In this document: positions 12,281-49,503 of the stretch, piece by piece
Position numbering within the stretch: position 1 is the first letter of the stretch
How the letters are laid out: each line of letters starts with the position of its first letter
Assembly (NCBI GenBank): GCA_025457965.1
Contig: JALOTJ010000001.1
Location: forward strand, 1,271-65,270
Reading direction: 5' to 3'
From: Spirochaetota bacterium
GTDB lineage: Bacteria > Spirochaetota > UBA4802 > UBA5368
Length of the DNA: 64,000 nt
Translations under genes and position numbers: made by a program
The notes under the pieces: model-generated
Databases searched by the model: none
Seen by the model: the letters and a program-made list of their open reading frames with translations, nothing else
Told to the model about the DNA's origin: nothing

Positions 12281-12293
12281 ATGCCTCCTCTTG

Positions 12294-13478: not shown

Positions 13479-13511
13479 GATATCCTCCCAGTCGATTGTT
13501 GCCGCCGCGGT

Positions 13512-14720
13512 TTATGCCCCATGCTTGCCCAGAATCGCGATACTGCACACGTTCATGAAGGGGAAGCCCCCGAGGTTATGGGTAAGCCCGAACCGCGGAT
13601 CCTTGAGCTGCCGCTTGTCCGCACGATTGAGCAGCTGTAAATACATCTCGTAGATCATGCGCATGCCTGACGCGCCGATCGGGTGTCCGAAACATTTTAG
13701 TCCACCGTCGATCTGGCAGGGAATTTTCCCGGTCGCATCGTAAAAGCCGTCCATGATGTCCTTCGGCGCCTTCCCCCGTTCGGAAATGTGCAGGTCTTCC
13801 ATGGTGACCAGCTCGGTGATCGAGAAACAGTCATGCACCTCGATCATGCTGAGCTCTTCCCGCGGATTTTTTATCCCCGCTTCCTTGTACGCGAGGGCGC
13901 TCGCCTTGTCGGTGGTCGTGAAATATGAGCCGTCCCACTGATTGTACGACATCTCTTCCCCGTTGCTGAGGGCCGTCTGCAGGGCCTTGACCGTTACGAT
14001 GTCCTTCTTCCCGAGGCTTTTTGCGATCTCGGGCGTGGTGACAATCGCGCAGGAGCTTCCATCGCTCACGCCGCAGCAGTCGAACAGGCCGAGCGGATAG
14101 GCCACCATGGGAGAATTGAGCACGGCCTCCTCGGTGACCGGGTTGCGCAGATGCGCCTTGGGGTTCAGCGCCCCGTTGGCATGGCTCTTCACCGAAACAT
14201 GCGCCATGGCCTTCTTTATGTCTTCCATAGGTATGCCGTACTTGGCCGAATACGCGCTGGCCAGCATGGCGAAACAGCCGGGAGCGGTCATGTTCGGAAA
14301 CCACAACTGGTTGGTGAGCCCCATGCCCGATCCGAAATCCGGCAGACCCGCGTATCCTATGTCCTTGAGTTTCTCGACCCCTATGGCAAGGCAGATGTCG
14401 TACGCGCCCGATGCCACCGCGTATACCGCGCCCCTGAAGGCCTCCGTGCCGCTCGCGCAGTAATTCTCGGTGCGCGTCACGCCGATTTTCGGCAGCCGCA
14501 GGGCTATCGCCGGGGGCAATCCGCTTTTACCCACGTTCACTTCATCGAGACACGAGCCGAACCACGCGGCCTCGATTTGCTTTTTATCAATCCCGGCGTC
14601 CGATATGCACTCCTGGAAGGCTTCCACCATCAACTCTTCCGATCCGCAATCCCATCGCTCGCCGAACCTGGTGCATCCCATTCCGATAATTGCGACCTTG
14701 TCTTTTATACCAGTTCCCAT
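13512..14720 (-). CDS. Thiolase (acetyl-CoA acetyltransferase-like, SCP-x type)
   Basis: VAIIGMGCTRFGERWD N-terminus. Active-site region NYCASGTEAF. C-terminal CFGHPIGASGMRMI. RBS AAGGGGGAT. Confidence 0.9.
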   Translation of the reverse strand: MGTGIKDKVAIIGMGCTRFGERWDCGSEELMVEAFQECISDAGIDKKQIEAAWFGSCLDEVNVGKSGLPPAIALRLPKIGVTRTENYCASGTEAFRGAVYAVASGAYDICLAIGVEKLKDIGYAGLPDFGSGMGLTNQLWFPNMTAPGCFAMLASAYSAKYGIPMEDIKKAMAHVSVKSHANGALNPKAHLRNPVTEEAVLNSPMVAYPLGLFDCCGVSDGSSCAIVTTPEIAKSLGKKDIVTVKALQTALSNGEEMSYNQWDGSYFTTTDKASALAYKEAGIKNPREELSMIEVHDCFSITELVTMEDLHISERGKAPKDIMDGFYDATGKIPCQIDGGLKCFGHPIGASGMRMIYEMYLQLLNRADKRQLKDPRFGLTHNLGGFPFMNVCSIAILGKHGA

Positions 14721-14731
14721 TGTATCCCCCT

Positions 14732-16189
14732 TTATCCCACGATTTCCGGGACGGCTTTCCAGAAATAGCCCCTGAATCCACGCATATCATCCTTGAGCCT
14801 GAGCCGGAAAGCCATAGTGACCGGCAGCCCCACCTTGACGTCGTCCAGCGCGCAATCGGTGAAATCAGCGAGCATCCGTCCGCCATCGGCGAAGGTGACA
14901 ATCCCATAGACTGCCGGCGGATCGATGGAGGCGGCAAGCATATCGCCGGTATACATGAGCACGCTGGCCTTCTTGTCCGTGAACTCATACGGATCCATTT
15001 CGCCTACCGCGTTGCATTCGGGATTGACGCACATCGGGGTGAATACGAACTGGGGGGTGCCGCACTTTCTGCACTTCCCGCCCACCAGGCCGATGAATTT
15101 CTTGCGGTTCCGCCACAGAACGGTCAGCGAAGTGTTCGGCGTAACCTCCCCGCGGATACCGAGGTCGCTTTCGCCGAGTTGCCTGAACGTGATAAACTTT
15201 TCGTAGCTCGTGAGCACCCGTTTGACCGCGAGGTGTCCCTTCACTCCCCTTGGGCCCTTGAAAGAGGCGAGTTTGTCGGTCGCCTTGAAGCACAGCACGT
15301 CACAGCCCTGCCCGAACCCGGCAAGCAGTATTTTGTCGCCCGGTTTCGCCGTTTCAAGCGCGGCCACGAGCATCAGCAGCGGATGCGCGGCGCCGGTATC
15401 TCCGCAGAGCTCGTGCATCGGGCTCTGCAGCTGTTCCGGGGTTATCCCGAGTTTTTTGGCTATCCCGTTATGGGTGGCCGCAAAATAACAAGGGTACACG
15501 ATTTTGGCGAAATCGCCGATCGCCATTTTGGTCTTCTTCAAAAAACCCGCAACCGCCTGGGGGATGATCTTGCCGAAGCCCTCGTCCCTTATCCAGCGCT
15601 CTTCCCAGCCGTAGTCGAACTCCTTGCCGGCGCCCCTGTAATGAGCGATGAAATCGCAGTTAATCGAATGACTGTCGATAAACTCGGCAATCACATCATC
15701 GCCTCCCAGGAGCAGCGCCGCCGCGCCGTCGCCCAGGTACATCTCGGACATGGTCGCCATCTTGGTCTTGCGCGTGTCGGCGGCGGCCACCAGCGCGCAT
15801 TTTTTATCGCCGGATTTCAGCGCCGAAAGGCCCGATATGAGCGCCGTGGTTCCGGCCTTCTGGCTCCCCGTGAAGTCGGCGCACGTGGTGCCCTCCTCGT
15901 TCACGTTGATCGCCGTGGCCAGAATGTCCGAATTGAGCCTGTCGGAAAACGGCATGGTGGTCGAGGCCATATACACCGCATCGACCTTCTTCCTGTCCTT
16001 CCCCTGCGCGCAGTCGATGGCGGCCGCCACGGCCATGGTAAGCGTGTCCTCGTCCCAGTTCGCCACCGATTTCTCTCCCTTGGCGGCGCCGAATATGACC
16101 GGCTGGTACCACGCCATGGTCTTCGCGATGATTTTACGTTCTATCCTGAGGCGGGGGATATATCCCCCGTACGATGTTATACCGATCAT
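14732..16189 (-). CDS. Archaeal-type HMG-CoA synthase-like condensing enzyme fused to a C-terminal DUF35 Zn-ribbon/OB-fold domain
   Basis: N-terminus MIGITSYGGYIPRLRIERK matches the archaeal HMGCS/PhlA-type start. C-terminus CRKCGTPQFVFTPMCVNPEC plus OB fold is a DUF35 domain. RBS AGGGGGATT. 11 nt gap to the downstream thiolase. Confidence 0.8.
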   Translation of the reverse strand: MIGITSYGGYIPRLRIERKIIAKTMAWYQPVIFGAAKGEKSVANWDEDTLTMAVAAAIDCAQGKDRKKVDAVYMASTTMPFSDRLNSDILATAINVNEEGTTCADFTGSQKAGTTALISGLSALKSGDKKCALVAAADTRKTKMATMSEMYLGDGAAALLLGGDDVIAEFIDSHSINCDFIAHYRGAGKEFDYGWEERWIRDEGFGKIIPQAVAGFLKKTKMAIGDFAKIVYPCYFAATHNGIAKKLGITPEQLQSPMHELCGDTGAAHPLLMLVAALETAKPGDKILLAGFGQGCDVLCFKATDKLASFKGPRGVKGHLAVKRVLTSYEKFITFRQLGESDLGIRGEVTPNTSLTVLWRNRKKFIGLVGGKCRKCGTPQFVFTPMCVNPECNAVGEMDPYEFTDKKASVLMYTGDMLAASIDPPAVYGIVTFADGGRMLADFTDCALDDVKVGLPVTMAFRLRLKDDMRGFRGYFWKAVPEIVG

Positions 16190-16198
16190 ATAATCCCC

Positions 16199-17644
16199 CT
16201 ATTTCTTTATCCCGGCCATGTCCTCGACGAGTTTCTTCGATTTGGCGATGATCTTTTTCGCTTCCATGAGAATTGTCATGCGCTCGGCGAACGGGGAGCC
16301 TTCTCCGTGCAGGCAGATCGTCTCGAGGTCACCTGCCGTCAGACGCCTTACCAGGTCGAACATGCGCAGCCGGTTCTCGGTGGAAACCTCGGGATTCGCC
16401 TGGAGATATTTTTCAATATCAGCGTGGGTTTCCGGGTTCTGCCAGTCGCGATATGTCGGCGCGGTGACGAGAAGGCCACCGGCGAGGTCCTGGATGATTT
16501 CCACGATCTTGTGATAGTTATGCGCGAAGTGATATTTCGCGATGTTGGTAGTGATCGGGTTCGGCACCGGTATCCCCGCGTGCATGACATAATCCAGACA
16601 TGCAGAACGCGACAGCGCGGTAAGGGTCTCAAGGTAAATGACGATCTCGGTGATCTTCTCCTTGACGTGCGGCGCGCCGGAAATGCCGTTATAGTCGGCG
16701 ATGGCGACGGCGATCCCAAGGAGTTGCTCGCTCATCGGTATACGATAGGCGCAGCCCGTTCTGCGGTGCATGAGGGCGAAATTATACACGCAGGTGGCGG
16801 CAACCTGCCACTCTCCGCAGAGGAAAACCCTGTCCCACGGTACAAAGACATCGTCAAAGATTATAAGCGAGTCGGTGTGCATCCTCCGAAGCTCGCTTCC
16901 AACGGGAAACTCATCGACGCTTATTCTGCCATGGAACGGGCGCACAATCTGGCGTATGCCTTTGGCATTGGCCGGAACGGCAACGGCCACCGCGTAGTCA
17001 CTGTCCTCGGGACCGCTCAGCGCGCGACACGGGATGGCGAAAAATTCATGGCAATAGGCGGCGCCTGTAATGTGAACCTTCGCGCCCCGGAGAACTATGC
17101 CATCCTTACGCTTCTCGACGATACGCAGGTTGAAATCAGGGTGCGCCTGTTTCGGATCCGATGGCCGAAGATGACGGTCACCCTTCACGTCGGTCACGCC
17201 CGCGACCACGCACTTGTCGGTCTTCTGAAGATACTTGCGATACTTCTCTATCCGCTCCAGATAAACCTTGCCGGCATCTCCGAGACTACGGGCTGTTATT
17301 GCGATCGCGTTCATCGCGTCGGCGCCGATATCGTGCGCAAGCGGAATATAGCCGTCGCCCAACTCGGTGGCCTTGATGATCAGATCAAGGTGCTTGAGTA
17401 GATCCTCGCCGTTCTTGGGCACATAATAATAACGGCTGATATTCTCGCCAAGCTCCTCATCATACACAAGCGCCAGATCTTTGTACTGCGGGTCCTCGGA
17501 CATATGATAATCGACGGCCACGGTTTCCACACAGGCTTTAAGATCCGGATCTTCGGCGACGTTTTCGATCTTCCTGCCCTTGTAGTATACAATTCTTCCG
17601 TCGTTTAAACTTGTCTTATATTCTTCCGGCGTCATTAAACCCAT
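16199..17644 (-). CDS. HpaB/AbfD-family flavoenzyme (4-hydroxybutyryl-CoA dehydratase/vinylacetyl-CoA isomerase-like)
   Basis: About 480 aa, the length and general composition of this family, with Cys/His residues placed as in AbfD (CVVAG, AAYCHEFFAIPC). Family call made from memory of AbfD; it is not motif-proven. RBS GGGAAGAGG. Confidence 0.65.
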   Translation of the reverse strand: MGLMTPEEYKTSLNDGRIVYYKGRKIENVAEDPDLKACVETVAVDYHMSEDPQYKDLALVYDEELGENISRYYYVPKNGEDLLKHLDLIIKATELGDGYIPLAHDIGADAMNAIAITARSLGDAGKVYLERIEKYRKYLQKTDKCVVAGVTDVKGDRHLRPSDPKQAHPDFNLRIVEKRKDGIVLRGAKVHITGAAYCHEFFAIPCRALSGPEDSDYAVAVAVPANAKGIRQIVRPFHGRISVDEFPVGSELRRMHTDSLIIFDDVFVPWDRVFLCGEWQVAATCVYNFALMHRRTGCAYRIPMSEQLLGIAVAIADYNGISGAPHVKEKITEIVIYLETLTALSRSACLDYVMHAGIPVPNPITTNIAKYHFAHNYHKIVEIIQDLAGGLLVTAPTYRDWQNPETHADIEKYLQANPEVSTENRLRMFDLVRRLTAGDLETICLHGEGSPFAERMTILMEAKKIIAKSKKLVEDMAGIKK

Positions 17645-30119: not shown

Positions 30120-31778
30120 CTATATGTCCATTACCTGTACTTCTATGAGGGGATTGCGCCTGGTAAGGCGGAAAATGGAGTTTTTAAGGTGCTTCCTTAA
30201 AAACACGGTGATCTCCTTCTCCTGCGCGCCATCGGCAAGCATCCGGTGCGTCTGCGCCTGCACATCGGCGCGGATGGCATCGATAACCTTGATGTTCTTG
30301 CCCGCCACAAACCCCTTCGCCACTATCTCCGGCGGACGGACGAGCATTCCCTCCGCCGTCACCACCGTCACCAGCACGATCCCCTCGGCGGACATGGACT
30401 TACGGTCGTGTATAACGCCGTTTCCCACGTCCTCGATGTCCTGGCCGTCAACGTATATCTGGTTGAGGTGAAGCTCACCCGTCTTCTCGAATGACTTTTT
30501 TGAGAGCTCCAGGATGTCGCCGTTGCCGGCGATAATGCATCTCGACGATTTGATTCCCAGCGATTCCGCAATACGCACGTGCGCGCGAAGATATCTGTAC
30601 TCACCGTGGATCGGCATGAAGAACTTCGGTTTGGTGAGCGAGATCATGAGCTTCAGCTCCTCCTGCGAGGCGTGCCCCGACACGTGCAGGTCCTCGTCCT
30701 GCTCGTAAAAGACCTCTGCGCCCATCCTCATGAGCGAGTTTATCACCGAATACACCATTCGTTCGTTTCCGGGAATGACCGAGGCGGTGATGATGACCGT
30801 GTCTCCCGGCCCGGCGGCGAAGTGACGGTGCGTGTTGGACGCCATCCTCGAGAGCGCCGACATCGGCTCGCCCTGCGACCCCGTGCAGATGATCACGAGC
30901 TTTTTCTCCGGCAGCGAGTTCGCCTCCGCCACTTCGATGATCAGGTCGTCGTGGTACTCGAGGTAGCCCAGGCTGCGCGCTATCTCCACGTTTTTCAACA
31001 TCGTGATCCCGCTGATGACGACCCGTTTGTTGTACTTCTGGGCGGCATCCAGCACCTGCTGTATGCGGTGTATGTTCGAGGCGAAAGTCGCCACGATGAT
31101 GCGGCCCCTGACCGAGGAGAAAATCTCGAAAAGCCTCTCGCTTAAGATGCTCTCAGAGCGCGTGTACCCCTTGCGAAGCGCATTGGTGCTGTCCGACATG
31201 AGCAGCAGCACCCCTTTCTCTCCGTATTCCGCGAACTTGTATATGTCGGTAACCATGCCGTCCACCGGAGAATAGTCGATCTTGAAGTCCCCGGAATGGA
31301 TGATGGTGCCCACCGGCGTGCCGATCGCGATGCCCGCGCCGTCGATGATTGAATGGTTGACCCGGATGAACTCAACCATAAAAGCGCCCACCTGCATTTT
31401 GTTGCCGGGCGTCACCTCTATGAAGGTCGGTTTCTGCCGGGGAGGCCGCTCTTCCAGCCTGCTCTGTATCAGCCCCAGTGTAAGCCGCATGGCGAAGACG
31501 GGCGCCGAGACCTCCTTTAATAAAAAGGGGATGGCGCCGATATGGTCCTCGTGTCCGTGGGTTATGATTATGCCCTTTATACGGTGACGGTTTTTAACGA
31601 TATACGAAAAATCGGGGATGATGAAGTCGATCCCCGGAGTCTCCTCGGTCGGGAACATGATGCCGCAGTCGACGACGATGATGTCCTCCCCGTATTCGAA
31701 GACCGTCATGTTTTTCCCTATGGCGTCAAGCCCGCCAAGGGGCATTATTTTTACGCACTGATCTTTGACCTGTTTCAT
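30120..31778 (-). CDS. rnj: Ribonuclease J (metallo-beta-lactamase/beta-CASP)
   Basis: [29 protein letters not shown] and [14 protein letters not shown]. 552 aa. Confidence 0.95.
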
Positions 31779-33863: not shown

Positions 33864-34700
33864 ATGCGCAATCCCGCATCGCTCGAACGGTTCAACAACG
33901 CCCTGCGGCTTGAGAAGGAGGGGAACTACATCATGGCGATGCACGAATACATGGCTGCAATCGAAAGCGACGCCTCGAACAGGGAAGCGTACCTTAACCT
34001 CGGCTCGCTCTACTCACGGATGAACCGCCTCGGCGAAGCAATGGAGTGCTACCGGAAGGCGCTCGAACTGGGCGACGATTACCTTGTCCACTTCAACATG
34101 GGAAGCCTTCTCTACAAGACGGGTGAATACAAGCAGGCGGTACTCGCGCTTGAGAAGTCCAGAAGGCAGAACGGCTCGTTCACGCTCACCCTGCTCGTAA
34201 TGGGGCTTTCGTTCAGCCGCATGCGCAACCATGCGGCTGCGGAGTCCTGCTTCGCCCGGGTGCTCGAGCTGGACTCCGGCAACCGGGTGGCGCTCACCGC
34301 GCTCGCCATCATCGAACTGGACAGGAAGAACCACGAACACGCGCTCGAACTCATAGACCGTATCCTCGCGGCGGACTCCGCCAACGGCAGCGCGAGAAAA
34401 CTGCGCGCGGACGTCCTCTACCGCATGAACCGCCTTGACGAGTCCGCGAGCGAAATCAAATCGCTCAGGGACGAAGCAGACGACTACCGCTCCTACGACG
34501 ACTTCATCCGCTCGATCCCCCTCGAGATCTACACCGACCGGTATGGGACGATAGAGGACAAGATCGCCGCGCTGGGAGAAAAGGCCGCCCCCGGCGACCG
34601 GGACGGCCTGCTCAGCCTCAGCCTCTGCTATCTCCTCGCGGGGGATCCGGACCGGGCCATCGATCTTCTCTTCGAGGCGAAAAAGAGCATCCTTAACTGA
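33864..34700 (+). CDS. Tetratricopeptide-repeat protein
   Basis: Multiple TPR-like helical repeats (AYLNLGSLYSRMNRLGEAMECYRKALEL and others). RBS AGGAGG. Confidence 0.8.
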   Translation: MRNPASLERFNNALRLEKEGNYIMAMHEYMAAIESDASNREAYLNLGSLYSRMNRLGEAMECYRKALELGDDYLVHFNMGSLLYKTGEYKQAVLALEKSRRQNGSFTLTLLVMGLSFSRMRNHAAAESCFARVLELDSGNRVALTALAIIELDRKNHEHALELIDRILAADSANGSARKLRADVLYRMNRLDESASEIKSLRDEADDYRSYDDFIRSIPLEIYTDRYGTIEDKIAALGEKAAPGDRDGLLSLSLCYLLAGDPDRAIDLLFEAKKSILN

Positions 34701-35461: not shown

Positions 35462-36709
35462 ATGCACAGGACCGAAAACGTCATCGATATTCATGGAATT
35501 CTCGACAGGGGGGATATCGTAAGCTTTTTTCAGCCGATCGTCTCGGTTAAAAAGAAATCGGTGATTGGCTTCGAGGCACTGAGCCGTGGTCTCGCGGAAG
35601 CCGACGCCGGCATGGTCTCTCCGCAGTTGCTTTTCGAATCGGCCGAAAAGAAAGGTCTCGCCACCAGCCTCGACCGCCTCTGCCGGGTGAAGGCGTTCGA
35701 AAGCTTCGGCGGACTCAAGAACGATCCCGACAGGTACATTCTCACCGTTAATATCGACCCATCCATCCTCGACGAGGGCACGGTCGGCTCAAACCACCTC
35801 AGGGAGCTCTCCCGTTCGCTCGGCATGCAACCCGGCAAGGTGCTCATTGAAATCATCGAGTCGAAGGTCGTTAACACAGAGGCCCTTAAGAAATTCGTGG
35901 CCCTCTATCATGAGTACGGATTCCTCATCGCCCTCGACAATATAGGCTCTGGGCTGTCGAACCTTGACCGTATCTCGATCATAAAGCCCGACATCCTTAA
36001 AATCGACAAGTCGCTCGTCCGGGGCGCCGCCGATCAGTGTCACAGCAGCGAAATCATAAAATCGCTCGTCGCCCTTGCCCACCGCATCGGCTCGCTTGTT
36101 ATCGCCGAGGGCGTCGAAACGGCCGACGAGGCTGTCGTCGCACTCGCGCTCGGCGTCGACATGCTGCAGGGGTATTACTTCGCCGAACCAGGGCCGCGTA
36201 TGGAACCACTCATGGACGGCATCGATGAAAAAATCGAGGCCGTTGCCGCGAATTTCAAGGAAAGGACCGTTAAGCGAATCAATGCCAAAAAATTGCAGTA
36301 CCGCAGCTACAACCAGATCATCAATACGCTGATAAGCGAGCTCTCGCGCATTCCCGAAGAGGAATACGATGAGGCGCTCGGGGCGCTCATCAGACCGCAC
36401 CCCGAACTGGAATGCGCCTATATCCTGGACGAGGACGGCATACAGGCGAGCGACACTATCTTCTCCTCAGCGAGCGGTGGCGATTCAAAAGGATTCTTTT
36501 TCCAACCGGGGAACAGGGGCACGGACCAGTCGTCCAAGGACTACTACTTCTTGCTGGCGGCGGGGCTGCCCAAGTACACCACCGCGCCCTACATCTCGCT
36601 CGCGTCGCGGAACATCTGCATTACCATATCGGTCGCCTTCCGCGACGTCAATTTCCGCAAGCGCATCCTGTGCATGGACATCATACAGGAAAACGGCATC
36701 ACCGCGTAA
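35462..36709 (+). CDS. EAL-domain protein (c-di-GMP phosphodiesterase) with an extra uncharacterised C-terminal domain of about 150 aa
   Basis: FQPIVSVKKKSVIGFEALSRG, LIALDNIGSGLSNL and IAEGVETADE are EAL motifs. Confidence 0.8.
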   Translation: MHRTENVIDIHGILDRGDIVSFFQPIVSVKKKSVIGFEALSRGLAEADAGMVSPQLLFESAEKKGLATSLDRLCRVKAFESFGGLKNDPDRYILTVNIDPSILDEGTVGSNHLRELSRSLGMQPGKVLIEIIESKVVNTEALKKFVALYHEYGFLIALDNIGSGLSNLDRISIIKPDILKIDKSLVRGAADQCHSSEIIKSLVALAHRIGSLVIAEGVETADEAVVALALGVDMLQGYYFAEPGPRMEPLMDGIDEKIEAVAANFKERTVKRINAKKLQYRSYNQIINTLISELSRIPEEEYDEALGALIRPHPELECAYILDEDGIQASDTIFSSASGGDSKGFFFQPGNRGTDQSSKDYYFLLAAGLPKYTTAPYISLASRNICITISVAFRDVNFRKRILCMDIIQENGITA

Positions 36710-36742: not shown

Positions 36743-37912
36743 TTACGGGGCCAGTTCACCCACACCCTCGCCGATGGTGCATTCGAAGACCTGCGGGGGG
36801 CCGCCGTACGCGCTCTGGAACCTCGCCCCGATCTCCCGTGCGAATTCCCCTGCGGCGGCGCCCGCCTCGAGCATGGTGATGGTGCACCCGCCGAAGCCGC
36901 CGCCCATCATGCGCGAACCGAAAACACCCGGCAGCGGAGCGGCCCATTCCACCAGCCGGTCCAATTCATCGATGCTCACTTCGAAATCGTCCCTGAGGCT
37001 TGCGTGAGACGCGTACAACAGGGCGCCCGCACCCGCATTGTCTCCGGAACGCATCAAACGATGAAAATCGAGCGCGCGCGCGTTCTCCGTCACCGCGTGT
37101 CGGGCGCGTTTCCGCTCCACGGCCGGCAGTTCGGGCGCCATCCGCTCATATTCAGCCGGGCCCAGTTCGCAGAGGTGATCGATACCGGCGCCCATGCCGC
37201 GCAACAGCGCGAGTGCCGATTCGCATTCACGGCGCCGGTCGTTGTAGCCGCTTTCGCGGAGCGAATGTTTGACCCCGCTGTTGACGAGCACAAAATGGAT
37301 GCGCGACGAATCGATAGTAAGATATTCGAACGAGAGGTCCCGCGTGTCCAGGAGCATGGCGCTGTCCTTTCTTCCGTGAATGACCGCGAACTGGTCCATT
37401 ATGCCGCAGGCGACCCCGGCATACTCCCGCTCCACGCGCTGTCCCAATTTCGCCAGCTCTACCGTATTGATGGGCAGGCCGAGCATCGAAAGCGCCCCGT
37501 ACAGCGTGACCGTGGTGACCGCAGCCGAGCTCGATACACCCGCTCCCGGCGGGATTGAGCTCAGGAAGCTCAGATCGAGGCCTTCATCCCAGTCGCTTCG
37601 GACCAGGGCAAGCGCCCCGGCCGGGTACAGCCAGACCTTCGGCACGACCGCACCTGCCCCGAAAAGTGAAAGCGGCAGATCGCCCGATGCATCGAAGCTT
37701 GCATCGTTAAAACGAAAGCGCTTGAGCGCATTTCTCGACATGCAGAGGTACACGGCCCTGTCGATAGCCGCGGGGAGGACATGACCGCCGTTATAATCGA
37801 CGTGCTCGCCGATGAGATTCATCCGCCCCGGACAGAAGAATACACGCACCGGACCCGTATCCGGGAAAACGGAACCGTGCCTCTCGATGAGCCGTTTCAG
37901 ATGATCGTTCAT
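36743..37912 (-). CDS. galK: Galactokinase (GHMP kinase)
   Basis: PGRMNLIGEHVDYNGG galactokinase signature. GHMP motif PLPGVFGSRMMGGGFGGCTI. Confidence 0.9.
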   Translation of the reverse strand: MNDHLKRLIERHGSVFPDTGPVRVFFCPGRMNLIGEHVDYNGGHVLPAAIDRAVYLCMSRNALKRFRFNDASFDASGDLPLSLFGAGAVVPKVWLYPAGALALVRSDWDEGLDLSFLSSIPPGAGVSSSAAVTTVTLYGALSMLGLPINTVELAKLGQRVEREYAGVACGIMDQFAVIHGRKDSAMLLDTRDLSFEYLTIDSSRIHFVLVNSGVKHSLRESGYNDRRRECESALALLRGMGAGIDHLCELGPAEYERMAPELPAVERKRARHAVTENARALDFHRLMRSGDNAGAGALLYASHASLRDDFEVSIDELDRLVEWAAPLPGVFGSRMMGGGFGGCTITMLEAGAAAGEFAREIGARFQSAYGGPPQVFECTIGEGVGELAP

Positions 37913-37956: not shown

Positions 37957-38856
37957 TCAGACGCGCTGGAGGTGTCTGAAGAAGGCTCTGCCCTGGTCGG
38001 TCGTGTTGATGCATACGGCGTCGCCGTCGTTCGACTCGGCGTACTCAACCAGACCGAAGTGCCTGAACCAGGTAAACGGGTAAAAGTCCAGAAACGATAT
38101 CAGGAATACATCATCGCGCGCGCCGAATCCGGTCAGATCGAAGAATTCGCCGGCGATGGAGTCGAGGTTGAAGCGGCCGTTCTGCCTCATGATCAGGTCG
38201 ATCAGTATGTGCCTGTTATGCCTGAGCTCGCGCGCTGCCGCCGGATTGGAGGGGAAGATGTCCTCCCAGCGCACCTTGCCCCAGAACGCCGCGAACAGGG
38301 CGGGAAAGACGTTTTCCCCCGTATATTCAGGGCTGATGAGCGCGGAAGTGCCGGCGGTTTCGATTATTCCCGCCGCTTTCATCATGATCACGCACTGCTT
38401 GGCATAGATCTCCAGAAGCTCCGAATCGCCGGATTCCCTGAACAGGTCGGTATCGGCGATGGCATGGACGCACCCGTCATAAAACTCCTGTCCCAGACAC
38501 CTGCCCCGGGCCGCCCTCGCTCCGTTTTTCTTAATGGCATCCGCCACGAACCTGCACAGTCTGACGGCGAAACAGCCCTCCAGTCCCCGCCCCGAAACGG
38601 AGTCGTCGAAACGTGCGAATGTCCTGACGAAACCGCCCGCACGCGGGCGCGCGTCGTACATCCAGGCCTGCTCGCAACTGCGGTTTACCACAATGGAGAA
38701 CAGCGCCGATTTCTCGGCGCCCGGCATATTGACGAACATCCTGTCTATCTCTTTTGCGATCCTGCCGCGGGAAAAATCCATTGAAACGACCTGTTGAACG
38801 AGTAAATTAATTTCATTATCGCACTGGTGCCCGGCTTCACCATGGGTATGTTTCAT
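37957..38856 (-). CDS. Hypothetical protein
   Basis: 299 aa ORF with protein-like composition, Trp/Phe-rich. RBS AAGGGAGAA before the ATG. The antisense ORF 37972-38784 is Arg/Gly-rich and judged spurious. Confidence 0.55.
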   Translation of the reverse strand: MKHTHGEAGHQCDNEINLLVQQVVSMDFSRGRIAKEIDRMFVNMPGAEKSALFSIVVNRSCEQAWMYDARPRAGGFVRTFARFDDSVSGRGLEGCFAVRLCRFVADAIKKNGARAARGRCLGQEFYDGCVHAIADTDLFRESGDSELLEIYAKQCVIMMKAAGIIETAGTSALISPEYTGENVFPALFAAFWGKVRWEDIFPSNPAAARELRHNRHILIDLIMRQNGRFNLDSIAGEFFDLTGFGARDDVFLISFLDFYPFTWFRHFGLVEYAESNDGDAVCINTTDQGRAFFRHLQRV

Positions 38857-38923
38857 ACCGACAAGGTTCTCCCTTTTCTATATGTACGGCCCAGGAAGCG
38901 CCAATGGGAACAATTGCATGGTC

Positions 38924-38948
38924 AATTAATTTCTGTGAAATTAATTGA
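38924..38948. repeat. Perfect 11 bp inverted repeat CAATTAATTTC-tgt-GAAATTAATTG inside an AT-rich intergenic island
   Basis: Read directly from the sequence. The arms are exact reverse complements. Confidence 0.6.
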
Positions 38949-39168
38949 TAATCATTTATATTTAAATTAATTTAAAGTCAATGAAAATTTGAAAAAGCGA
39001 GCGGGAAAAGCAAAAAAAAACACTTTACCCGACCCGCTTGCGCCTGGTCCATCAAATCACCACAAGCTTTCGCGTTGTTCATAATAATAAAATTAATAAT
39101 AATCGATTATTGATCAGGTCACGTTCTTTGTAGTGCAGGATGCCCGGACAACGGAGAAGCGATCTCGG

Positions 39169-39200
39169 TGTGGATTAGTTTGTGATTAGATTGTGGATAA
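39169..39200. promoter_or_regulatory. Array of three DnaA-box-like 9-mers (TGTGGATTA, TGTGATTAG, TGTGGATAA) spaced 11-12 bp apart
   Basis: The third box is the exact reverse complement of the TTATCCACA consensus. The first matches 8/9 and the second 6/9. The one-helical-turn phasing was seen directly. Confidence 0.4.
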
Positions 39201-39242
39201 TTGTCGACAAGTGTTTCATTTATTACGGAATGTCTTTTTTAA

Positions 39243-39271
39243 TTGCAAAACCACGCGCATCGCCGTATAAT
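39243..39271 (+). promoter_or_regulatory. Sigma70-type promoter TTGCAA-N17-TATAAT placing the transcription start about 1-2 nt before the ATG at 39280 (leaderless)
   Basis: TTGCAA at 39243-39248, a 17 nt spacer, TATAAT at 39266-39271. The ATG at 39280 is only 8 nt downstream of the -10 box. Confidence 0.5.
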
Positions 39272-39279
39272 CAGGGACT

Positions 39280-40263
39280 ATGAGTATTTATTCCGCGATT
39301 GCGAAGGTCTACAGGCCCGCCGTTTTCCAGGGCGGCCTCGAAAAAAAAGGCTATTTCGAGGGCTGGTATTTCAAGCAGGTATCGGCCGACTCTCGTCGCG
39401 TGCTGGCGTTCATCCCCGGCGTTTCACTCTCCGGAGATCGTCACGCTTTCATACAGATGATCGATGGCATGACGGGCGAATCCCGTTATTTTTCGTACGA
39501 CCTGTCCGATTTCAAATGGAAAAAAGACCGCTTCGAGATCAACATCGGTCCAAGCCGGTTTAGCTCCGAAGGCATGTCAATTGACATACGCTCACAGGGT
39601 ACGCGCGTAAGCGGTACCCTCGAGTTCGCCGATGTGCGCCCCTATCCGGTAAAAACCCTTTCCCCCGGCATCATGGGGTGGTATTCGTTCGTCCCCTCCA
39701 TGGAGTGTTACCACGGCGTCGTCTCCATGGGGCACCGGCTTTCGGGAAGCATCAGCATAGATGACGATACAATCCGCTTCGAAGGAGGACGGGGGTATAT
39801 CGAGAAGGACTGGGGAACCTCCTTTCCCGAGTCGTGGATATGGCTGCAGGGCAACACCTTCCCGGACGGGGAGGCCTCGTTCATGCTTTCAATAGCGAAA
39901 ATCCCCTGGAGGGGAAGGCATTTCAACGGTTTTCTGTGCTTTTTATACGCGGGGGGAAAGCTTCACCGCTTCATGACCTACACGGGGGCTCGGATTAACG
40001 AGATACGCCTGGACGAGGGCCGGCTTTTCGTAACACTTTCCGACCGGCGATACCGGCTCTCCGTTGAGGCCCGGCAACTTGTCACCGGCGCCCTGGCCGC
40101 ACCCGCCATGGGGACCATGAGCCGCCCCATCAAGGAATGCGGCAACGCACGCCTGGTTGTGCGACTTGAGGACGCCGCGGGTCGCATTCTTTTTGAGGCG
40201 TCCGACGCAACCGCCGGGATGGAGGCGTTGGGCGACGTTATCAACCTCATCCGGAGGAAGTGA
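39280..40263 (+). CDS. Tocopherol-cyclase-like protein (bacterial homologue of the VTE1 family)
   Basis: GYFEGWYFKQVS matches the conserved FFEGWYFRVS segment of tocopherol cyclases. 327 aa. Confidence 0.7.
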   Translation: MSIYSAIAKVYRPAVFQGGLEKKGYFEGWYFKQVSADSRRVLAFIPGVSLSGDRHAFIQMIDGMTGESRYFSYDLSDFKWKKDRFEINIGPSRFSSEGMSIDIRSQGTRVSGTLEFADVRPYPVKTLSPGIMGWYSFVPSMECYHGVVSMGHRLSGSISIDDDTIRFEGGRGYIEKDWGTSFPESWIWLQGNTFPDGEASFMLSIAKIPWRGRHFNGFLCFLYAGGKLHRFMTYTGARINEIRLDEGRLFVTLSDRRYRLSVEARQLVTGALAAPAMGTMSRPIKECGNARLVVRLEDAAGRILFEASDATAGMEALGDVINLIRRK

Positions 40264-40649
40264 TGAATATGCACGACGCGCTCTTCTGGTTATACCTGGT
40301 AAATTCCGTGGTGCTCATCAACCATGAGATCGAATCGGCGTATTGGAGAGAATGGGAGCTCTTCAGGATTCCGGGAGGAATCACCGGATTTCTCCTCATC
40401 CATTTCCCGGTACTGTTTGTCATGTTTTATGGCCTGGCCTCCCTGAAGGAGAGAGAAACGACCGGGCTCGTCATTTCGCTCCTGGTGTCGCTGGGCGGAT
40501 TGTTCGCGTTCTGCGCCCACTCCTGGTTCATACGACAGGGACGCACGGAGTTCACGCTTCCGATATCGCGCCTTATACTGGCCGTCACGCTCGCGCTCTC
40601 TGTCGCGCAGGGGGCGCTCACGCTGTACCTGCTGCTGATGGGCGGCTGA
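40263..40649 (+). CDS. Small integral membrane protein (4 predicted TM helices), hypothetical
   Basis: Start overlaps the upstream stop in the GTGATGAATATG context, with GGAGGA 4 nt upstream of the ATG at 40263. Hydrophobic helices throughout. Confidence 0.6.
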   Translation: MNMHDALFWLYLVNSVVLINHEIESAYWREWELFRIPGGITGFLLIHFPVLFVMFYGLASLKERETTGLVISLLVSLGGLFAFCAHSWFIRQGRTEFTLPISRLILAVTLALSVAQGALTLYLLLMGG

Positions 40650-40731
40650 GGGTTCGCCGGCACGCATGGCCGCGGGCCGGACTTATCCGCGTTAAATCCG
40701 AACGATATGGAATATCACCGCGAGGATAAAA

Positions 40732-41511
40732 ATGAAAAACACCGAGACTCCGCAAACCGCTAACCCGGGGCTCTGGCTCGTCATCGCCGCCTCTTCCGGT
40801 GCGCTCTTCATCACCGGGTCATTTTTCTCGATCGACTGGATCAACTATCTCTACGGTACGAACAGCGTCTACCCTGCGTTCGCAAAGCCTGCAGTCTCAC
40901 TGCTCTGCGCCCTCATAGTGTTCGGCATCGGGAGGAACGGCCTGGGCTCGCGCGATACGCTCCTGCTCGTCGTTTCCTATATCTGCATAGTCATCGTCGA
41001 CGCTGCCATGAGCGTCTGGGTGTACCACGACGACGCTTCGCTTAAAAACGCCGCCTTCCTCATCGGCGCCGCGCTCTCAATCATAGCGCACGTCCTGCTC
41101 ATTATACGCCACGCGCGAGGCTTCCATTTCCTTCGCTCCGGCTCAACGTTCGCGCGCCGCGCCGCCTTCCCGCTCTGTTTCTATGTTCCGGTCGCTGTCA
41201 TCTTCATGTTCCTCGCCGCTCCGCTGCATGCCGCCGGGCAGTTCTATCCCTCGCTGTTTTACGCCCTCATCCTCACCACCTCGCTCTGGGTGGGATGGGA
41301 AACGGTCCGAAACCACCTGTTCCCCGCGCGAAACGCCTGGCTCATCGCGATGGGCGTCAGCTCCTGGTTCGCAACCGAGATAATCGGCGTGCTGTACAAC
41401 ATACGGGTAGAGTCGATAGCGCCGATCTGCATGATCATGACCTGGCTCTTCTACATGCCCGCGATCCTTCTCATCGCGCTCAGCGGTCACCGGTGGGGGA
41501 CCCGGGGCTAA
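40732..41511 (+). CDS. Polytopic membrane protein (YhhN/lysoplasmalogenase-like), hypothetical
   Basis: About 8 TM helices. RBS GAGGAT. Family assignment is tentative. Confidence 0.55.
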   Translation: MKNTETPQTANPGLWLVIAASSGALFITGSFFSIDWINYLYGTNSVYPAFAKPAVSLLCALIVFGIGRNGLGSRDTLLLVVSYICIVIVDAAMSVWVYHDDASLKNAAFLIGAALSIIAHVLLIIRHARGFHFLRSGSTFARRAAFPLCFYVPVAVIFMFLAAPLHAAGQFYPSLFYALILTTSLWVGWETVRNHLFPARNAWLIAMGVSSWFATEIIGVLYNIRVESIAPICMIMTWLFYMPAILLIALSGHRWGTRG

Positions 41512-41527
41512 GCACAACGGCCGACCC

Positions 41528-41983
41528 ATGGGCACGATCGATATAACCGGGGTCCCGCTATCCGGGATCGAAATTATCAGGCCCCTGTGGGAGAAACTCA
41601 GGCTCCACCACCTGCAGCGCGCGCAGCATTTCAGCGGGTACTACGAAACATTCACCTTCGGGAGGCGAATCGATAAGTTCCTTGACGAAGGTATCGATAG
41701 CAATATCGATGTCGCGCGTGACGGCGGGATTGTCATCGGCTACTGCATCAGCACGATCGACCGGCGCGGGCGCGGTGAGATCGATTCGCTTTTTATCGAG
41801 GAGAAGTATCGCCGCGAGGGTATCGGGACCGAATTTATGAGGAGGGCCCTCGATTGGATCGACGGCCGGGGCGCGACCGAAATCGCTATTGTCGTGGCCG
41901 CGGGTAATGAGGAAGCGCTTCCTTTCTACCGGAGATATGGTTTTTTTCCGGCATACACAACCCTGAAGCTGAAAAACGAATAG
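41528..41983 (+). CDS. GNAT-family N-acetyltransferase
   Basis: EEKYRREGIGTEFMRRALDWI is the acetyl-CoA binding motif. PFYRRYGF. Confidence 0.8.
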   Translation: MGTIDITGVPLSGIEIIRPLWEKLRLHHLQRAQHFSGYYETFTFGRRIDKFLDEGIDSNIDVARDGGIVIGYCISTIDRRGRGEIDSLFIEEKYRREGIGTEFMRRALDWIDGRGATEIAIVVAAGNEEALPFYRRYGFFPAYTTLKLKNE

Positions 41984-44845: not shown

Positions 44846-45490
44846 TCAGGAGGCGCCGGTGAATTTTTCGCCGTCAAGAACAAACATGCCGTACTGGGCG
44901 AACAGATTGGCCGCGGCGACGGTCGGCAGCGACACGCCCCCGACTCCGACGTTGAAGTGACGCTCTTTCTTGACCGGGTAGTGGTTCCCGCGGCAATAGC
45001 GCAGGAAGTCTCTTATGGTCAGAAGGTGGATGTTCGGCGACTCGTACCACTCGTACGGCAACAGCCTGTTCTTCGGCATGGTGCCCTTGCAGAGGAGCTG
45101 CAGCCGGATTTGATAGTACCCGAAATTCGGAAAGCTTATAATTGCGTTCTTACCGATACGCATGATCTCCGCCAGCACGTATTCCGGCTTTTTCGTGCTC
45201 TGCAGTGTCTGGTTGAGGATCACATAATCGAACGAGTTGCTCTTGTAATCGGCAAGGCCGTCGTCGATGTCACCCTGGTAGCAGTACAGGCCCTTCTCCA
45301 GGCACATGCTCACCCCCTCGGCCGAGAGCTCGACGCCATACCCGTCTATCTTCTTTACGCGCTGGAGCGTGTAAAGCAGCACCCCGTCGCCGCAGCCCAG
45401 GTCGAGTACACGCGAATGCGCGGGGACTTCCTCGATAATGATGTCGTACCCTGCGCGGATCTCGCCGCCGTGTTCAGCCGTGCTTTTCAA
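44846..45490 (-). CDS. metW: Methionine biosynthesis protein MetW
   Basis: [11 protein letters not shown] and MetW-like length. Overlaps the metX 3' end. TTG start; start uncertain. Confidence 0.85.
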
Positions 45491-46637
45491 ACTGGCTCCT
45501 CAGGAAGTTCGCGATATTGCGCTGTGTCTGCCTGTCGTCGAGAAGAAAGGTGTCATGCCCGGTGTCCGAATCGATCTCGGTATAACCAACGTGCTTGCCG
45601 CAGGCACGAAGGGCCCGCACGATCTCCCTTGACTGTTCGCTCGGGTAAAGCCAGTCGGAGGTATAGCTGATAATGAGGAAATCGGCCTCCACCTTCTCGA
45701 ATGCCGCGCCGAGACTGCCGTAATCGGCCTTCAGGTCGAAGTAATCGATCGCCTTGGTGATGTACAGGTACGAGTTCGCGTCGAAGCGGTTTACGAACTT
45801 TATCCCCTGGTGGTGCAGGTACGACTCCACCATGAACTCGGACTCGAAATTGAAGCTGAACAGGTCGGCGTCCTGCAGCCGGCGCCCGAATTTCTCGTGC
45901 ATAAGCTGTTCGCTCATATAGGTGATGTGGCCGATCATGCGCGCGAGCCCCAGCCCCGCCTCGGGCTTATTCCCCCCATAATAGTCGCCGCCGCACCAGT
46001 TCGGATCGCGAAATATCGCCTGGCGCCCCACCTCGTTGAACGCGATCCCCTGTGCGGAAAGCGAAGCCGAGCTCGCCAGGGGAATCGCCGAGGCGACCAT
46101 GCCGGGATACGAGATGCACCACTGAAGCGCCTGCATACCGCCCATGGAGCCGCCCGCCACCGCAAGCAGGCGGTCAATACCGAGATGCCGCACCAGATGG
46201 TACTGCGCGTTCACCATGTCATGAATCGTCACGATCGGGAAGCTCAGCCCGTATTCCTTTCCGGTGCCCGGGTCGATGGAGGCGGGCCCCGTCGATCCCG
46301 TACATCCTCCTATGACGTTCGAGCAGATAATGAAATACCTGTTCGTATCGAAGGTCTTTCCCGGGCCGACATAGAGGTCCCACCAGCCGGGATACAGATC
46401 ATCGTTGCTGTTATATCCGGCCGCGTGTGCGGAGCCGGAAAGAGCATGCAACAGGAGCACGGCGTTCGTGCGCTCCGCGTTGAGATTCCCGTAGGTTTCG
46501 TAGGCGAGCGTTACCGGCCCGAGACTCCTGCCGGAAACCAGCCGCATCTCATCCGGTATAACGGCGAAGGTGAAGTATTCGGTTTTGACAAGACCTACCG
46601 AGTCATCGGGTACGTCGAGTATTCCATTCGTCTTCAT
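45474..46637 (-). CDS. metX: Homoserine O-acetyltransferase
   Basis: LAYETYGNLN, LLHALSGSAHA and GGSMGGMQ (alpha/beta hydrolase nucleophile). ATG at 46637 preferred over the TTG at 46670, which directly abuts the terminator U-tract. Confidence 0.88.
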   Translation of the reverse strand: MKTNGILDVPDDSVGLVKTEYFTFAVIPDEMRLVSGRSLGPVTLAYETYGNLNAERTNAVLLLHALSGSAHAAGYNSNDDLYPGWWDLYVGPGKTFDTNRYFIICSNVIGGCTGSTGPASIDPGTGKEYGLSFPIVTIHDMVNAQYHLVRHLGIDRLLAVAGGSMGGMQALQWCISYPGMVASAIPLASSASLSAQGIAFNEVGRQAIFRDPNWCGGDYYGGNKPEAGLGLARMIGHITYMSEQLMHEKFGRRLQDADLFSFNFESEFMVESYLHHQGIKFVNRFDANSYLYITKAIDYFDLKADYGSLGAAFEKVEADFLIISYTSDWLYPSEQSREIVRALRACGKHVGYTEIDSDTGHDTFLLDDRQTQRNIANFLRSQFEKHG

Positions 46638-46671
46638 GCGTTCGCCCGGCCAAGCGGGTCTTCTCTCCAAT

Positions 46672-46838
46672 AAAAAAACCGCGTATCTGAAACAGGCGAT
46701 AGCGGTTTATTCTTCGATAAACTGCCATCCCATCTCCCGGATTGTCATCCGCTGGAGTTGGCACCTTCCCCCTTCCGGGGACGGTTGCCGTGGCTTCTCG
46801 GGGCCAGTCCCTCCACCACTCTGGATAAGATAGCGCGA
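46672..46838 (-). promoter_or_regulatory. SAM-I (S-box) riboswitch with intrinsic terminator expression platform upstream of metX-metW
   Basis: Minus strand reads CUUAUCCAGAGUGGUGGAGGGACUGGCCC-GAGAAGCCACGGCAACC...GGUGCCAACUCCAGCGG...GGGAGAUGGGA, followed by an 11-12 bp hairpin AAACCGCUAUC/GAUAGCGGUUU with a U7 run (plus strand 46672-46710). Confidence 0.85.
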
Positions 46839-49422: not shown

Positions 49423-49503
49423 TTCAGCGTATTCACGCCCGTCCGGCATGGCCGGACGGGCAGTCTTTACAAATAAAAACTAATGGTAAAGGAGTGACTC
49501 ACT

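Follow-up and report, generated by a model that had tools for sequence, protein, structure and literature searches.

An AT-rich intergenic region beside an orphan gene of a Spirochaetota bacterium: a probable compound control region with putative palindromic operators and conserved DnaA boxes

A 64-kb stretch of DNA from a Spirochaetota bacterium (hereafter the window) contains, at positions 38857-39279, an AT-rich island that forms the divergent intergenic region between gene X, which codes for an orphan protein and is followed by galK on the minus strand, and a tocopherol-cyclase-like gene cassette on the plus strand. On balance, we regard this island as a compound transcriptional control region, in which the promoter and operators of the X-galK pair are combined with an array of DnaA boxes and a leaderless promoter of the cassette. 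An earlier reading made from the letters of the window (the sequence-only reading) had already proposed a heavily regulated promoter. This is the right class of element, yet the palindrome and the AT-rich repeats belong to the divergent, minus-strand X-galK promoter and not to the tocopherol-cyclase promoter; they make up a set of putative operators that is specific to the X gene family. The observation itself is real, and the alignments indicate that conservation makes the features of the island non-random. The mechanisms that we propose are of known kinds; the protein family X and its operator are undescribed.

Results

A conserved AT-rich island in an ordinary chromosomal setting

The GC content of the window is 56.6%, i.e. 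lower than the value of over 60% that had been assumed for the genome. The island has a GC content of 0.381, and 38901-39300 is the minimum among the 400-bp stretches of the window (0.362, with the runner-up at 0.415), so that its strongly AT-rich character is borne out. The surrounding gene content is that of an ordinary chromosome, with ftsK, RNase J, uvrB, nadC, tsaD, H+-pyrophosphatase and fumarase genes, metX/metW behind a SAM (S-adenosylmethionine) riboswitch, hypE/hypF and fatty-acid oxidation genes. Exact matches to proteins of the window were found on metagenome contigs only.

The same locus was retrieved from relatives, whose X proteins are 89% (L082), 81% (L092 and L083), 73% (L085 and L098) and 68% (L089-L091) identical to that of the window. 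In an alignment of five lineages, the ~300 nt from window position 39000 down to 38701 have a mean pairwise identity of 85-95%, which in the identity profile exceeds nearly all coding segments of X or galK. When the window is compared with L089, on the other hand, fourfold-degenerate sites reach an identity of only 34% for galK and 47% for X beyond its first 60 codons. Since the ~300-nt stretch is so similar while the synonymous positions of adjacent genes are saturated, strong selection must act on its nucleotide sequence. Further upstream, three conserved islands (an A/T-tract region, a block that we call block C, and the DnaA boxes) are separated by variable DNA.

The A/T-tract region (38983-39025, minus strand) resembles an UP element and lies upstream of the -35 element of X, with a T-run at 39012-39020 on the X strand. 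Its T-runs are kept in the five lineages, and A/T tracts are found at the same place in distant promoters of the X family. Block C (39076-39118), an AT-rich element that reads CTGATCAAT...TTATTATTAATTTTATTATTATGAACA on the X strand, is 83-93% identical to its counterparts in the relatives, whereas the flanking segments are 33-62% identical. At about -115 it contains one near-copy, with a single mismatch, of the palindromic core AATTAATT described below. A small RNA or terminator between block C and the T-run was considered and rejected, as the fold z is ~0 in five lineages and no terminator was called. Likewise, the small open reading frames of the island (47 aa on the plus strand, 38827-38970; 34 aa on the minus strand, 38978-39082) were dismissed, because 1-nt indels and a frame change in L085 disrupt these frames in the relatives.

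In L092, an insertion of ~190 bp (about 370-560 of that locus) parts the DnaA boxes from block C and the rest of the control region. It consists of two GC-rich hairpin repeats (…CCCGCTGCAGGCGGG… and …CCCCCCGCCGCAGGCGGGGGG…) and resembles a REP-like (repetitive extragenic palindromic) or miniature mobile element.

Predicted promoter and palindromic sites of X-galK

Reading along the minus strand, we find the -35 element TTGACT (38976-38981), a perfect 16-bp palindrome, the -10 candidates TAAATG and TATAAA, a TGATTATCA sub-palindrome, a perfect 12-3-12 palindrome, a leader of ~90 nt with a Shine-Dalgarno (SD)-like GGGAG and the ATG of X at 38856. The -35 element is invariant in the five close lineages and is part of the 18-mer TTGACTTTAAATTAATTT. 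As -10 element of this promoter (P_X) we probably have to consider TAAATG (38953-38958), a weak and atypical hexamer that would leave a spacer of 17 nt; TATAAA (38955-38960), with a 15-nt spacer, is the alternative. The spacer is filled by the 16-bp palindrome TTTAAATTAATTTAAA (38961-38976), the putative operator unit O1. The TGATTATCA sub-palindrome sits between the -10 element and the 12-3-12 palindrome (38922-38948), which comprises the putative units O2 and O3 and would extend from about +1 to +25 of P_X. The minus-strand promoter, the 16-bp palindrome and the copies of the AATTAATT core are features absent from the sequence-only reading.

On the plus strand the 12-3-12 palindrome reads TCAATTAATTTC-TGT-GAAATTAATTGA; it is also given as TCAATTAATTTC-ACA-GAAATTAATTGA. 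A perfect 11-bp inverted repeat had been noted at 38924-38948, and a perfect repeat indeed exists at this site, but its arms are 12 nt long and start at 38922/38923. It is the longest perfect hairpin-type repeat of the window; arms of at least 12 nt arose in only 2 of 100 shuffles with preserved local composition. With the exception of one loop base, the palindrome is invariant in the five aligned lineages.

Both palindromes are built around the 8-bp palindromic core AATTAATT, which occurs four times in 64 kb, every copy being located within 38805-38972. Counted from the first base of the -35 element, the cores of the window lie at +9, +35 and +50, and those within the 12-3-12 palindrome are 15 bp apart. 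The position +9 is occupied in all family promoters. L139 and L160, two distant relatives, have cores at the positions of the window (+9, +35 and about +169) and carry a single unit, TCAATTAATTTCA, at the same place after the -10 element, while L155 and L158 have two cores with the 15-bp spacing that is found inside the palindrome of the window. In 14 family loci, 37 cores lie in promoter zones compared to 1 in ~164 kb of flanking DNA. The association of these elements with the X gene family is exclusive. A literature search for AAATTAATTT as a described operator gave nothing relevant.

Scanning JGI metagenome contigs for the 18-mer TTGACTTTAAATTAATTT gave at least 120 matches, for 80 of which the locus was returned. 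Among the matches listed, most occur by chance in genomes of 22-47% GC. At least 11 lie directly upstream of distant X homologues that share only 31-53% identity with family members; the genomes concerned have 36-59% GC and differing gene neighbourhoods. The same 18-mer is present in L096 and L097, which were found via the protein. Aligned at the 17-nt -10 position, the family promoters show the hexamers TACATG, TATATG, TATGTT and TAACTA (TAnnTG/T). Together with the A/T tracts before the -35 element, this pattern supports the assignment of a promoter with an atypical -10 element.

The palindromic sites overlap the promoter of the gene and are specific to that gene, as in the case of an autoregulated repressor. 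Given that the orphan protein X is predicted to contain two winged-helix domains, autoregulation of the X-galK promoter by X is our leading inference. According to this model, whose transcript start, protein contacts and direction of regulation are all deduced from sequence, a dimeric DNA-binding protein would occupy the palindromic sites and repress P_X by occlusion, perhaps assisted by looping. One of the sites would fill the spacer, two would make up the 12-3-12 palindrome (roughly +1 to +25), and one may lie ~140 nt further on, inside the coding region. X itself would be the most likely occupant of the AATTAATT dyads and would thereby block the spacer and the +1 region. It is important to note that the lone TCAATTAATTTCA unit of L139 and L160 is unable to form a hairpin, which favours recognition as DNA over a role as RNA stem.

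Downstream of P_X, conservation extends through the predicted 5' leader of the X mRNA (~90 nt, 38857-38946, minus strand) into the gene. The leader harbours a conserved GCGCUUCCUG that is able to base-pair with the SD-like AGGGAG (38869-38873); the loop between the two is the only part of the leader that varies. In the first ~52 codons of X (38701-38856, minus strand) synonymous sites are conserved, the identity at fourfold sites being 0.76-0.86 in the first 60 codons versus 0.43-0.47 in the rest. This segment harbours the fourth AATTAATT core (38805-38812, codons E-I-N-L-L), which is broken in L092. An internal operator, mRNA structure or recombination are candidate reasons for the conservation of the early codons. 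We also observed an invariant hairpin-capable element, GCGCCGAGAAATCGGCGC, in the early coding region at about 38703-38720 (position by alignment).

X, an orphan protein with predicted winged-helix domains

Gene X (37957-38856, minus strand) is the first of the X-galK pair and codes for 299 aa; galK (36743-37912, minus strand) starts 44 bp past X. Some gene callers start X at Met26. However, distant homologues conserve the N-terminal MK...INLL, and so we consider 38856 to be the true start. X homologues with a named organism are labelled 'Spirochaetes' or 'Spirochaetota bacterium'.

Attempts to link X to a named family failed. X gave no Pfam match, nor did 16 family members at E up to 5, and a profile search against PDB sequences revealed no relevant match. 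X has no NCBI-style family relative and shows no sequence similarity to PadR, MarR, ArsR or any Rep family, and Foldseek searches (PDB twice, viral models) gave no match at E ≤0.001. In an exhaustive profile search of 1.84 billion representatives, we obtained 140 clusters (50% identity) at E ≤0.001, 139 of which score at ≤1e-10, i.e. the X family is compact and has a sharp edge.

AlphaFold predicts X with a pLDDT (predicted local distance difference test) of 82 over the full length, and residues 91-299 with a pLDDT of 92.5 and a pTM (predicted template modelling score) of 0.89. In the models, two helix-strand-helix-helix-wing units follow an N-terminal helical region. The high-probability Foldseek matches are all winged-helix DNA binders (STIV F93, LmrR/PadR, AbfR/MarR, HlyU/ArsR and AspA), with probabilities of 0.8-1.0, target-normalised TM scores of 0.5-0.63 and E of only 0.08-0.5. 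On the basis of these models, X may well bind DNA.

The neighbourhood of X has recurring elements across deep divergence. galK is also next to X in L139 and L160. In L094 (4579-6500) and L096 (1960-3910), X lies beside an orthologous TPR protein of 277-278 aa (47-49% identity) and a GGDEF protein; in the window, this TPR protein and an EAL protein are encoded near X (33864-34700 and 35462-36709, both on the plus strand). With galK, TPR and GGDEF neighbours, one may speculate that the X-galK operon responds to a sugar or to a signal related to cyclic di-GMP (c-di-GMP).

The leaders of the distant X genes in L094 (3400-3520) and L096 (230-400) are GC-rich and contain two GNRA-capped hairpins (GGCCGUAAGGCC and GGCCGGAAGGCC) that are closed by an AACCCG...CGGGUU helix. 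They look like structured cis-regulatory RNAs, although they match no Rfam family. A c-di-GMP riboswitch, which we had suspected by eye, was dropped as Rfam searches lent no support.

A conserved DnaA-box array

The sequence-only reading had reported three 9-mers at 39169-39200, the last of them an exact DnaA box, and both statements hold. On the minus strand, the array reads TTATCCACA (39200-39192), a 2-bp spacer (at), CTAATCACA (39189-39181), a 3-bp spacer (aac) and TAATCCACA (39177-39169), with 0, 3 and 1 mismatches to the DnaA box, respectively. The TTATCCACA copy at 39192-39200 is the sole perfect DnaA box in 64 kb. With regard to motif frequency, boxes with up to one mismatch are not significant in the window alone (16 observed versus ~8 expected); as far as can be judged from the aligned loci, their significance lies in their conservation in relatives.

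L082 has the same outer boxes as the window. In L092, L085, L098, L086, L088 and L089-L091 we find TTAT(C/T)CACA-tt(c/g)-TTATCCACA, followed 24 bp further on by an inverted TGTG(C/T)ATAA. The array of the relatives can thus be given as TTATCCACAttcTTATCCACA plus inverted TGTGCATAA. The sequence between the boxes is unconserved, and the middle 9-mer CTAATCACA of the window is not kept as a box. L089-L091 retain the boxes even though they lack the cassette, nadC adjoining the intergenic region in these loci. The earlier suggestion of DnaA as a regulator is supported insofar as the boxes are conserved as boxes, but they are not simply regulator sites of the tocopherol-cyclase gene. At more distant X-family loci, DnaA boxes are absent. 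From this distribution it follows that the boxes belong to the chromosomal locus in this clade and not to the X family.

In E. coli, chromatin immunoprecipitation sequencing revealed that DnaA binds almost only direct pairs of boxes that are 2-3 bp apart (Stringer, Fitzgerald & Wade 2024, PMC11317965). Targets include nrdA, purH, polA and DARS1 (a DnaA-reactivating sequence) upstream of uvrB, and an increase of the spacing by 1 bp abolishes binding to the double box (PMC11317965). Like these sites, the array lies in an intergenic region away from the origin and has two or three direct 9-mers that match TTATCCACA; their spacings in the window are 2 and 3 bp, and the relatives carry two perfect or near-perfect boxes 3 bp apart in the ideal form TTATCCACAttcTTATCCACA. 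As the spacing fits the E. coli double-box rule, binding of DnaA to the array is a reasonable inference by analogy. The spirochaete sites differ in their host and in being known from sequence alone, the window copy is degenerate, and the array persists with or without the divergent gene.

If occupied, the array, which lies ~200 bp upstream of the X promoter and is centred at about -83 to -106 relative to the cassette promoter in the window, might tie an adjacent promoter, or else the local pool of DnaA, to the replication cycle. It may serve to regulate the cassette promoter or X-galK, or it may contribute in a small way to DnaA handling.

A predicted leaderless promoter in front of the cyclase cassette

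On the plus strand, a sigma-70-type promoter (TTGCAA-N17-TATAAT, 39243-39271) precedes the tocopherol-cyclase-like gene, whose ATG is at 39280, so that the -10 element ends 8 nt before the start codon. The promoter and the leaderless mRNA that it implies had been proposed before, and comparison with relatives speaks for both. L082 has TTGTAA, a 17-nt spacer, TAGAAT and 8 nt to the ATG; L092 has TTGTAA, 16 nt, TATGAT and 8 nt; and L085 has TTGTAA, 18 nt, CATCAT and 7 nt. Thus, the arrangement TTGyAA-N16-18-(-10)-7-8 nt-ATG recurs in four lineages with unconserved bases in between, and this constant promoter-to-ATG geometry supports the prediction of a leaderless cyclase-gene mRNA. Neither a Shine-Dalgarno sequence nor a conserved purine-rich box was found before the cyclase ATG in the four lineages, and homologues have N-termini that fit this start codon.

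These properties, i.e. a -10 element 7-8 nt before the start codon, no Shine-Dalgarno sequence and a geometry that is kept while the sequence drifts, are shared with leaderless bacterial mRNAs. The transcript start at the present locus, in contrast, is a prediction, and neighbouring genes such as X carry SD-like sequences, which makes the leaderless trait gene-specific.

The four-gene cassette (39280-41983, plus strand) encodes Tocopherol_cycl-like, DUF6713, YhhN-like and GNAT proteins (Pfam); the Tocopherol_cycl-family gene occupies 39280-40263. As the cassette is absent from L089-L091 (compare L089 2633-3940), the alignment marks it as an insertion or deletion relative to these loci. The leaderless promoter could have come with an insertion of the cassette or have evolved afterwards. 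In GTDB species representatives, cyclase homologues are at most 52% identical, and the nearest ones (~50%) come from Thermoplasmatota and Bacteroidales. That the closest homologues reside in other phyla at such low identity suggests horizontal acquisition.

Discussion

Several points weigh against the compound control region with X as autorepressor. The -10 element of P_X is atypical (TAAATG), and a scan for consensus promoters did not call P_X. The Foldseek E values are weak (0.08-0.5), the winged-helix assignment of X being derived from fold probability and the order of secondary structure elements, and a conserved factor other than X may bind the dyads. Since the palindrome is invariant, covariation cannot separate its DNA and RNA roles. 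In addition, the high conservation runs ~150 nt into the coding region, more than operator occupancy fully explains. As to the DnaA boxes, the array of the window lineage is weaker than those of the relatives, and the spacing between the boxes and the promoters is not constant among the lineages (42 to ~90 bp towards the cassette, 194 to 389 bp towards X), so that no single target gene stands out.

We therefore weighed other explanations for the same features. The ~300-nt stretch could act mainly as RNA, in that a 12-bp AU stem at the 5' end would guard the X mRNA from 5'-end-dependent decay, and pairing of GCGCUUCCUG with the AGGGAG ribosome-binding site would gate translation. It would fit such a role that RNase J is encoded in the window (30120-31778), that the predicted X transcript would begin with the first bases of the palindrome and that variation in the leader is confined to the predicted loop. 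The CUUCCU:AGGGAG helix is part of the minimum-energy fold in four of six lineages, for four of six leaders the fold is more stable than that of shuffles (z -2.5 to -3.1), and a function as RNA could explain the conserved synonymous sites in the first ~50 codons of X. However, none of 71 predicted pairs in the leader and early coding region shows a compensatory change, the covariation term is unfavourable, and the one arm change in the palindrome of L083 is uncompensated. Distant relatives keep a single palindromic or spacer unit where a hairpin is impossible, and the spacer palindrome lies upstream of any transcript. In Rfam searches, no family reached an E below 0.2 in 38300-39800 (threshold E = 10), and none was found in the island when the whole window was searched at the gathering score. 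As the principal function we consider RNA unlikely; being compatible with the operator model, it is kept as a secondary mechanism.

Less likely still is the binding of the AT-rich dyads by another regulator, be it a member of the Fur/PerR/BosR family or an AT-preferring nucleoid-associated protein. The island is the most AT-rich DNA of the window, TAAATTAATT shares 9 of 10 bases with the BosR repeat of Borrelia, TAAATTAAAT (PMC3037356), and the sub-palindrome TGATAATCA (38946-38954) with its flanks agrees with 12 of 19 Fur-box positions in a hand alignment. Yet BosR sites repeat TAAAT in direct orientation, whereas the X-promoter site is an inverted repeat (AAATT/AATTT). A global regulator should have more sites, but the core is absent from the other 63.5 kb and occurs once in ~164 kb of family flanks, which is not a regulon-like distribution. 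Moreover, the motif accompanies the X gene in genomes that range from 35 to 59% GC and differ in gene neighbourhood, and the annotation of the window shows no member of the Fur family.

Boxes, AT-rich DNA and a DNA-binding protein also bring replication to mind. The locus could be an origin or its remnant, be it the chromosomal oriC or a secondary origin, or else an iteron-type replicon that became integrated and in which X, as a Rep-like initiator with two winged helices, represses itself via the inverted repeat while DnaA boxes and an AT-rich unwinding region lie alongside. pPS10, F and R6K are iteron plasmid origins that the layout of the island resembles: DnaA boxes, an AT-rich block, repeated dyads and an inverted repeat over the promoter of a tandem winged-helix gene of ~300 aa. 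In relatives, furthermore, a GC-rich stretch and, beyond it, AT-rich DNA come after the inverted DnaA box, and Orc1/Cdc6 is among the Foldseek matches of X. The Orc1 match, though, has a root-mean-square deviation of 13 Å, no RepA, RepE or Pi structure appeared in the top 50, and X lacks sequence similarity to any Rep family. The repeats are short, irregularly spaced palindromes, the conserved units being 12-16 bp long, rather than tandem iterons of 17-22 bp; in a search for the latter, only weak 22-nt repeats (73% identity) with spacings of 26 and 125 bp were found. Unlike iteron replicons, the locus has a chromosomal, syntenic context (ftsK, rnj, uvrB, nadC, tsaD, H+-pyrophosphatase), and most members of the X family, namely those at the more distant loci, lack the boxes.

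The window as a whole speaks in the same direction. GC skew on the plus strand is negative over all 64 kb, and the cumulative curve falls monotonically through 39 kb with no turn. Gene orientation does not diverge at the island: to its left as well as to its right, the minus strand carries most of the genes. The annotation of the window includes no dnaA, dnaN, gyrB, parAB, rpmH or plasmid gene. From the continuous negative skew and the one-sided gene orientation we conclude that an origin is very unlikely here, in line with the doubt expressed in the sequence-only reading; of all explanations we give it the least credence. Compared with oriC, datA and the DARS loci, the island shares DnaA boxes adjoining AT-rich DNA. 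The AT-rich block C lies ~65 bp from the boxes. The island differs in having just two to three boxes, no skew switch, no dnaA or dnaN and no abutting DnaA-trio array that could be seen by eye. datA has five DnaA boxes plus an IHF site. In view of at most three boxes and of no exact IHF consensus seen by eye in 39100-39170, the island is not a convincing datA analogue, and the titration site that had been suggested finds little favour. There is also a slim chance, hardly better than that of an origin, that the boxes, the AT-rich block and X with its dyads constitute a spirochaete-specific replication-control module, such as a DARS/datA-like locus or a dormant or secondary origin, in which X may be an accessory initiator or regulator.

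The preferred model, a control region centred on autoregulation of X-galK, has its closest parallels in the PadR, MarR and ArsR autorepressors. As in these systems, the first gene of the operon codes for a predicted winged-helix protein, and gene-specific palindromes cover the spacer and +1. In contrast, X lacks sequence similarity to these families, its ~300 aa are predicted to comprise an N-terminal helical region followed by two winged-helix units, and the AATTAATT core and the 18-mer with TTGACT and dyad are conserved over deeper divergence than is usual for operators.

An uncharacterised family of ~140 clusters is thereby paired with a precise candidate DNA site, the AATTAATT dyads. Bacterial promoters rarely show conservation like that of the 18 nt of -35 element and spacer, which are kept in genomes ranging from 35 to 59% GC. 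With the conserved double DnaA box, spirochaetes offer a concrete candidate site at which DnaA could act outside the origin; we know of no such non-origin DnaA site described in Spirochaetota. From a practical perspective, the combination of AT-rich DNA and DnaA boxes at this locus represents a false positive for origin-finding programs. Interest in the locus would rise if the DnaA boxes and X were indeed to act together in replication control.

Further features of the window

A SAM-I riboswitch (89 bits) at 46727-46831 on the minus strand precedes a metX-like alpha/beta hydrolase gene (45474-46670) and metW (44846-45490), both on the same strand; this is the standard leader of methionine biosynthesis genes. 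A perfect 11-3-11 inverted repeat at 49437-49461, just past a gene that ends at 49422, is probably a transcription terminator. In the region 12291-17401, simple open reading frame picking gave only long plus-strand frames, the third-position GC of which is 0.55-0.58 as compared with 0.7-0.8 elsewhere.

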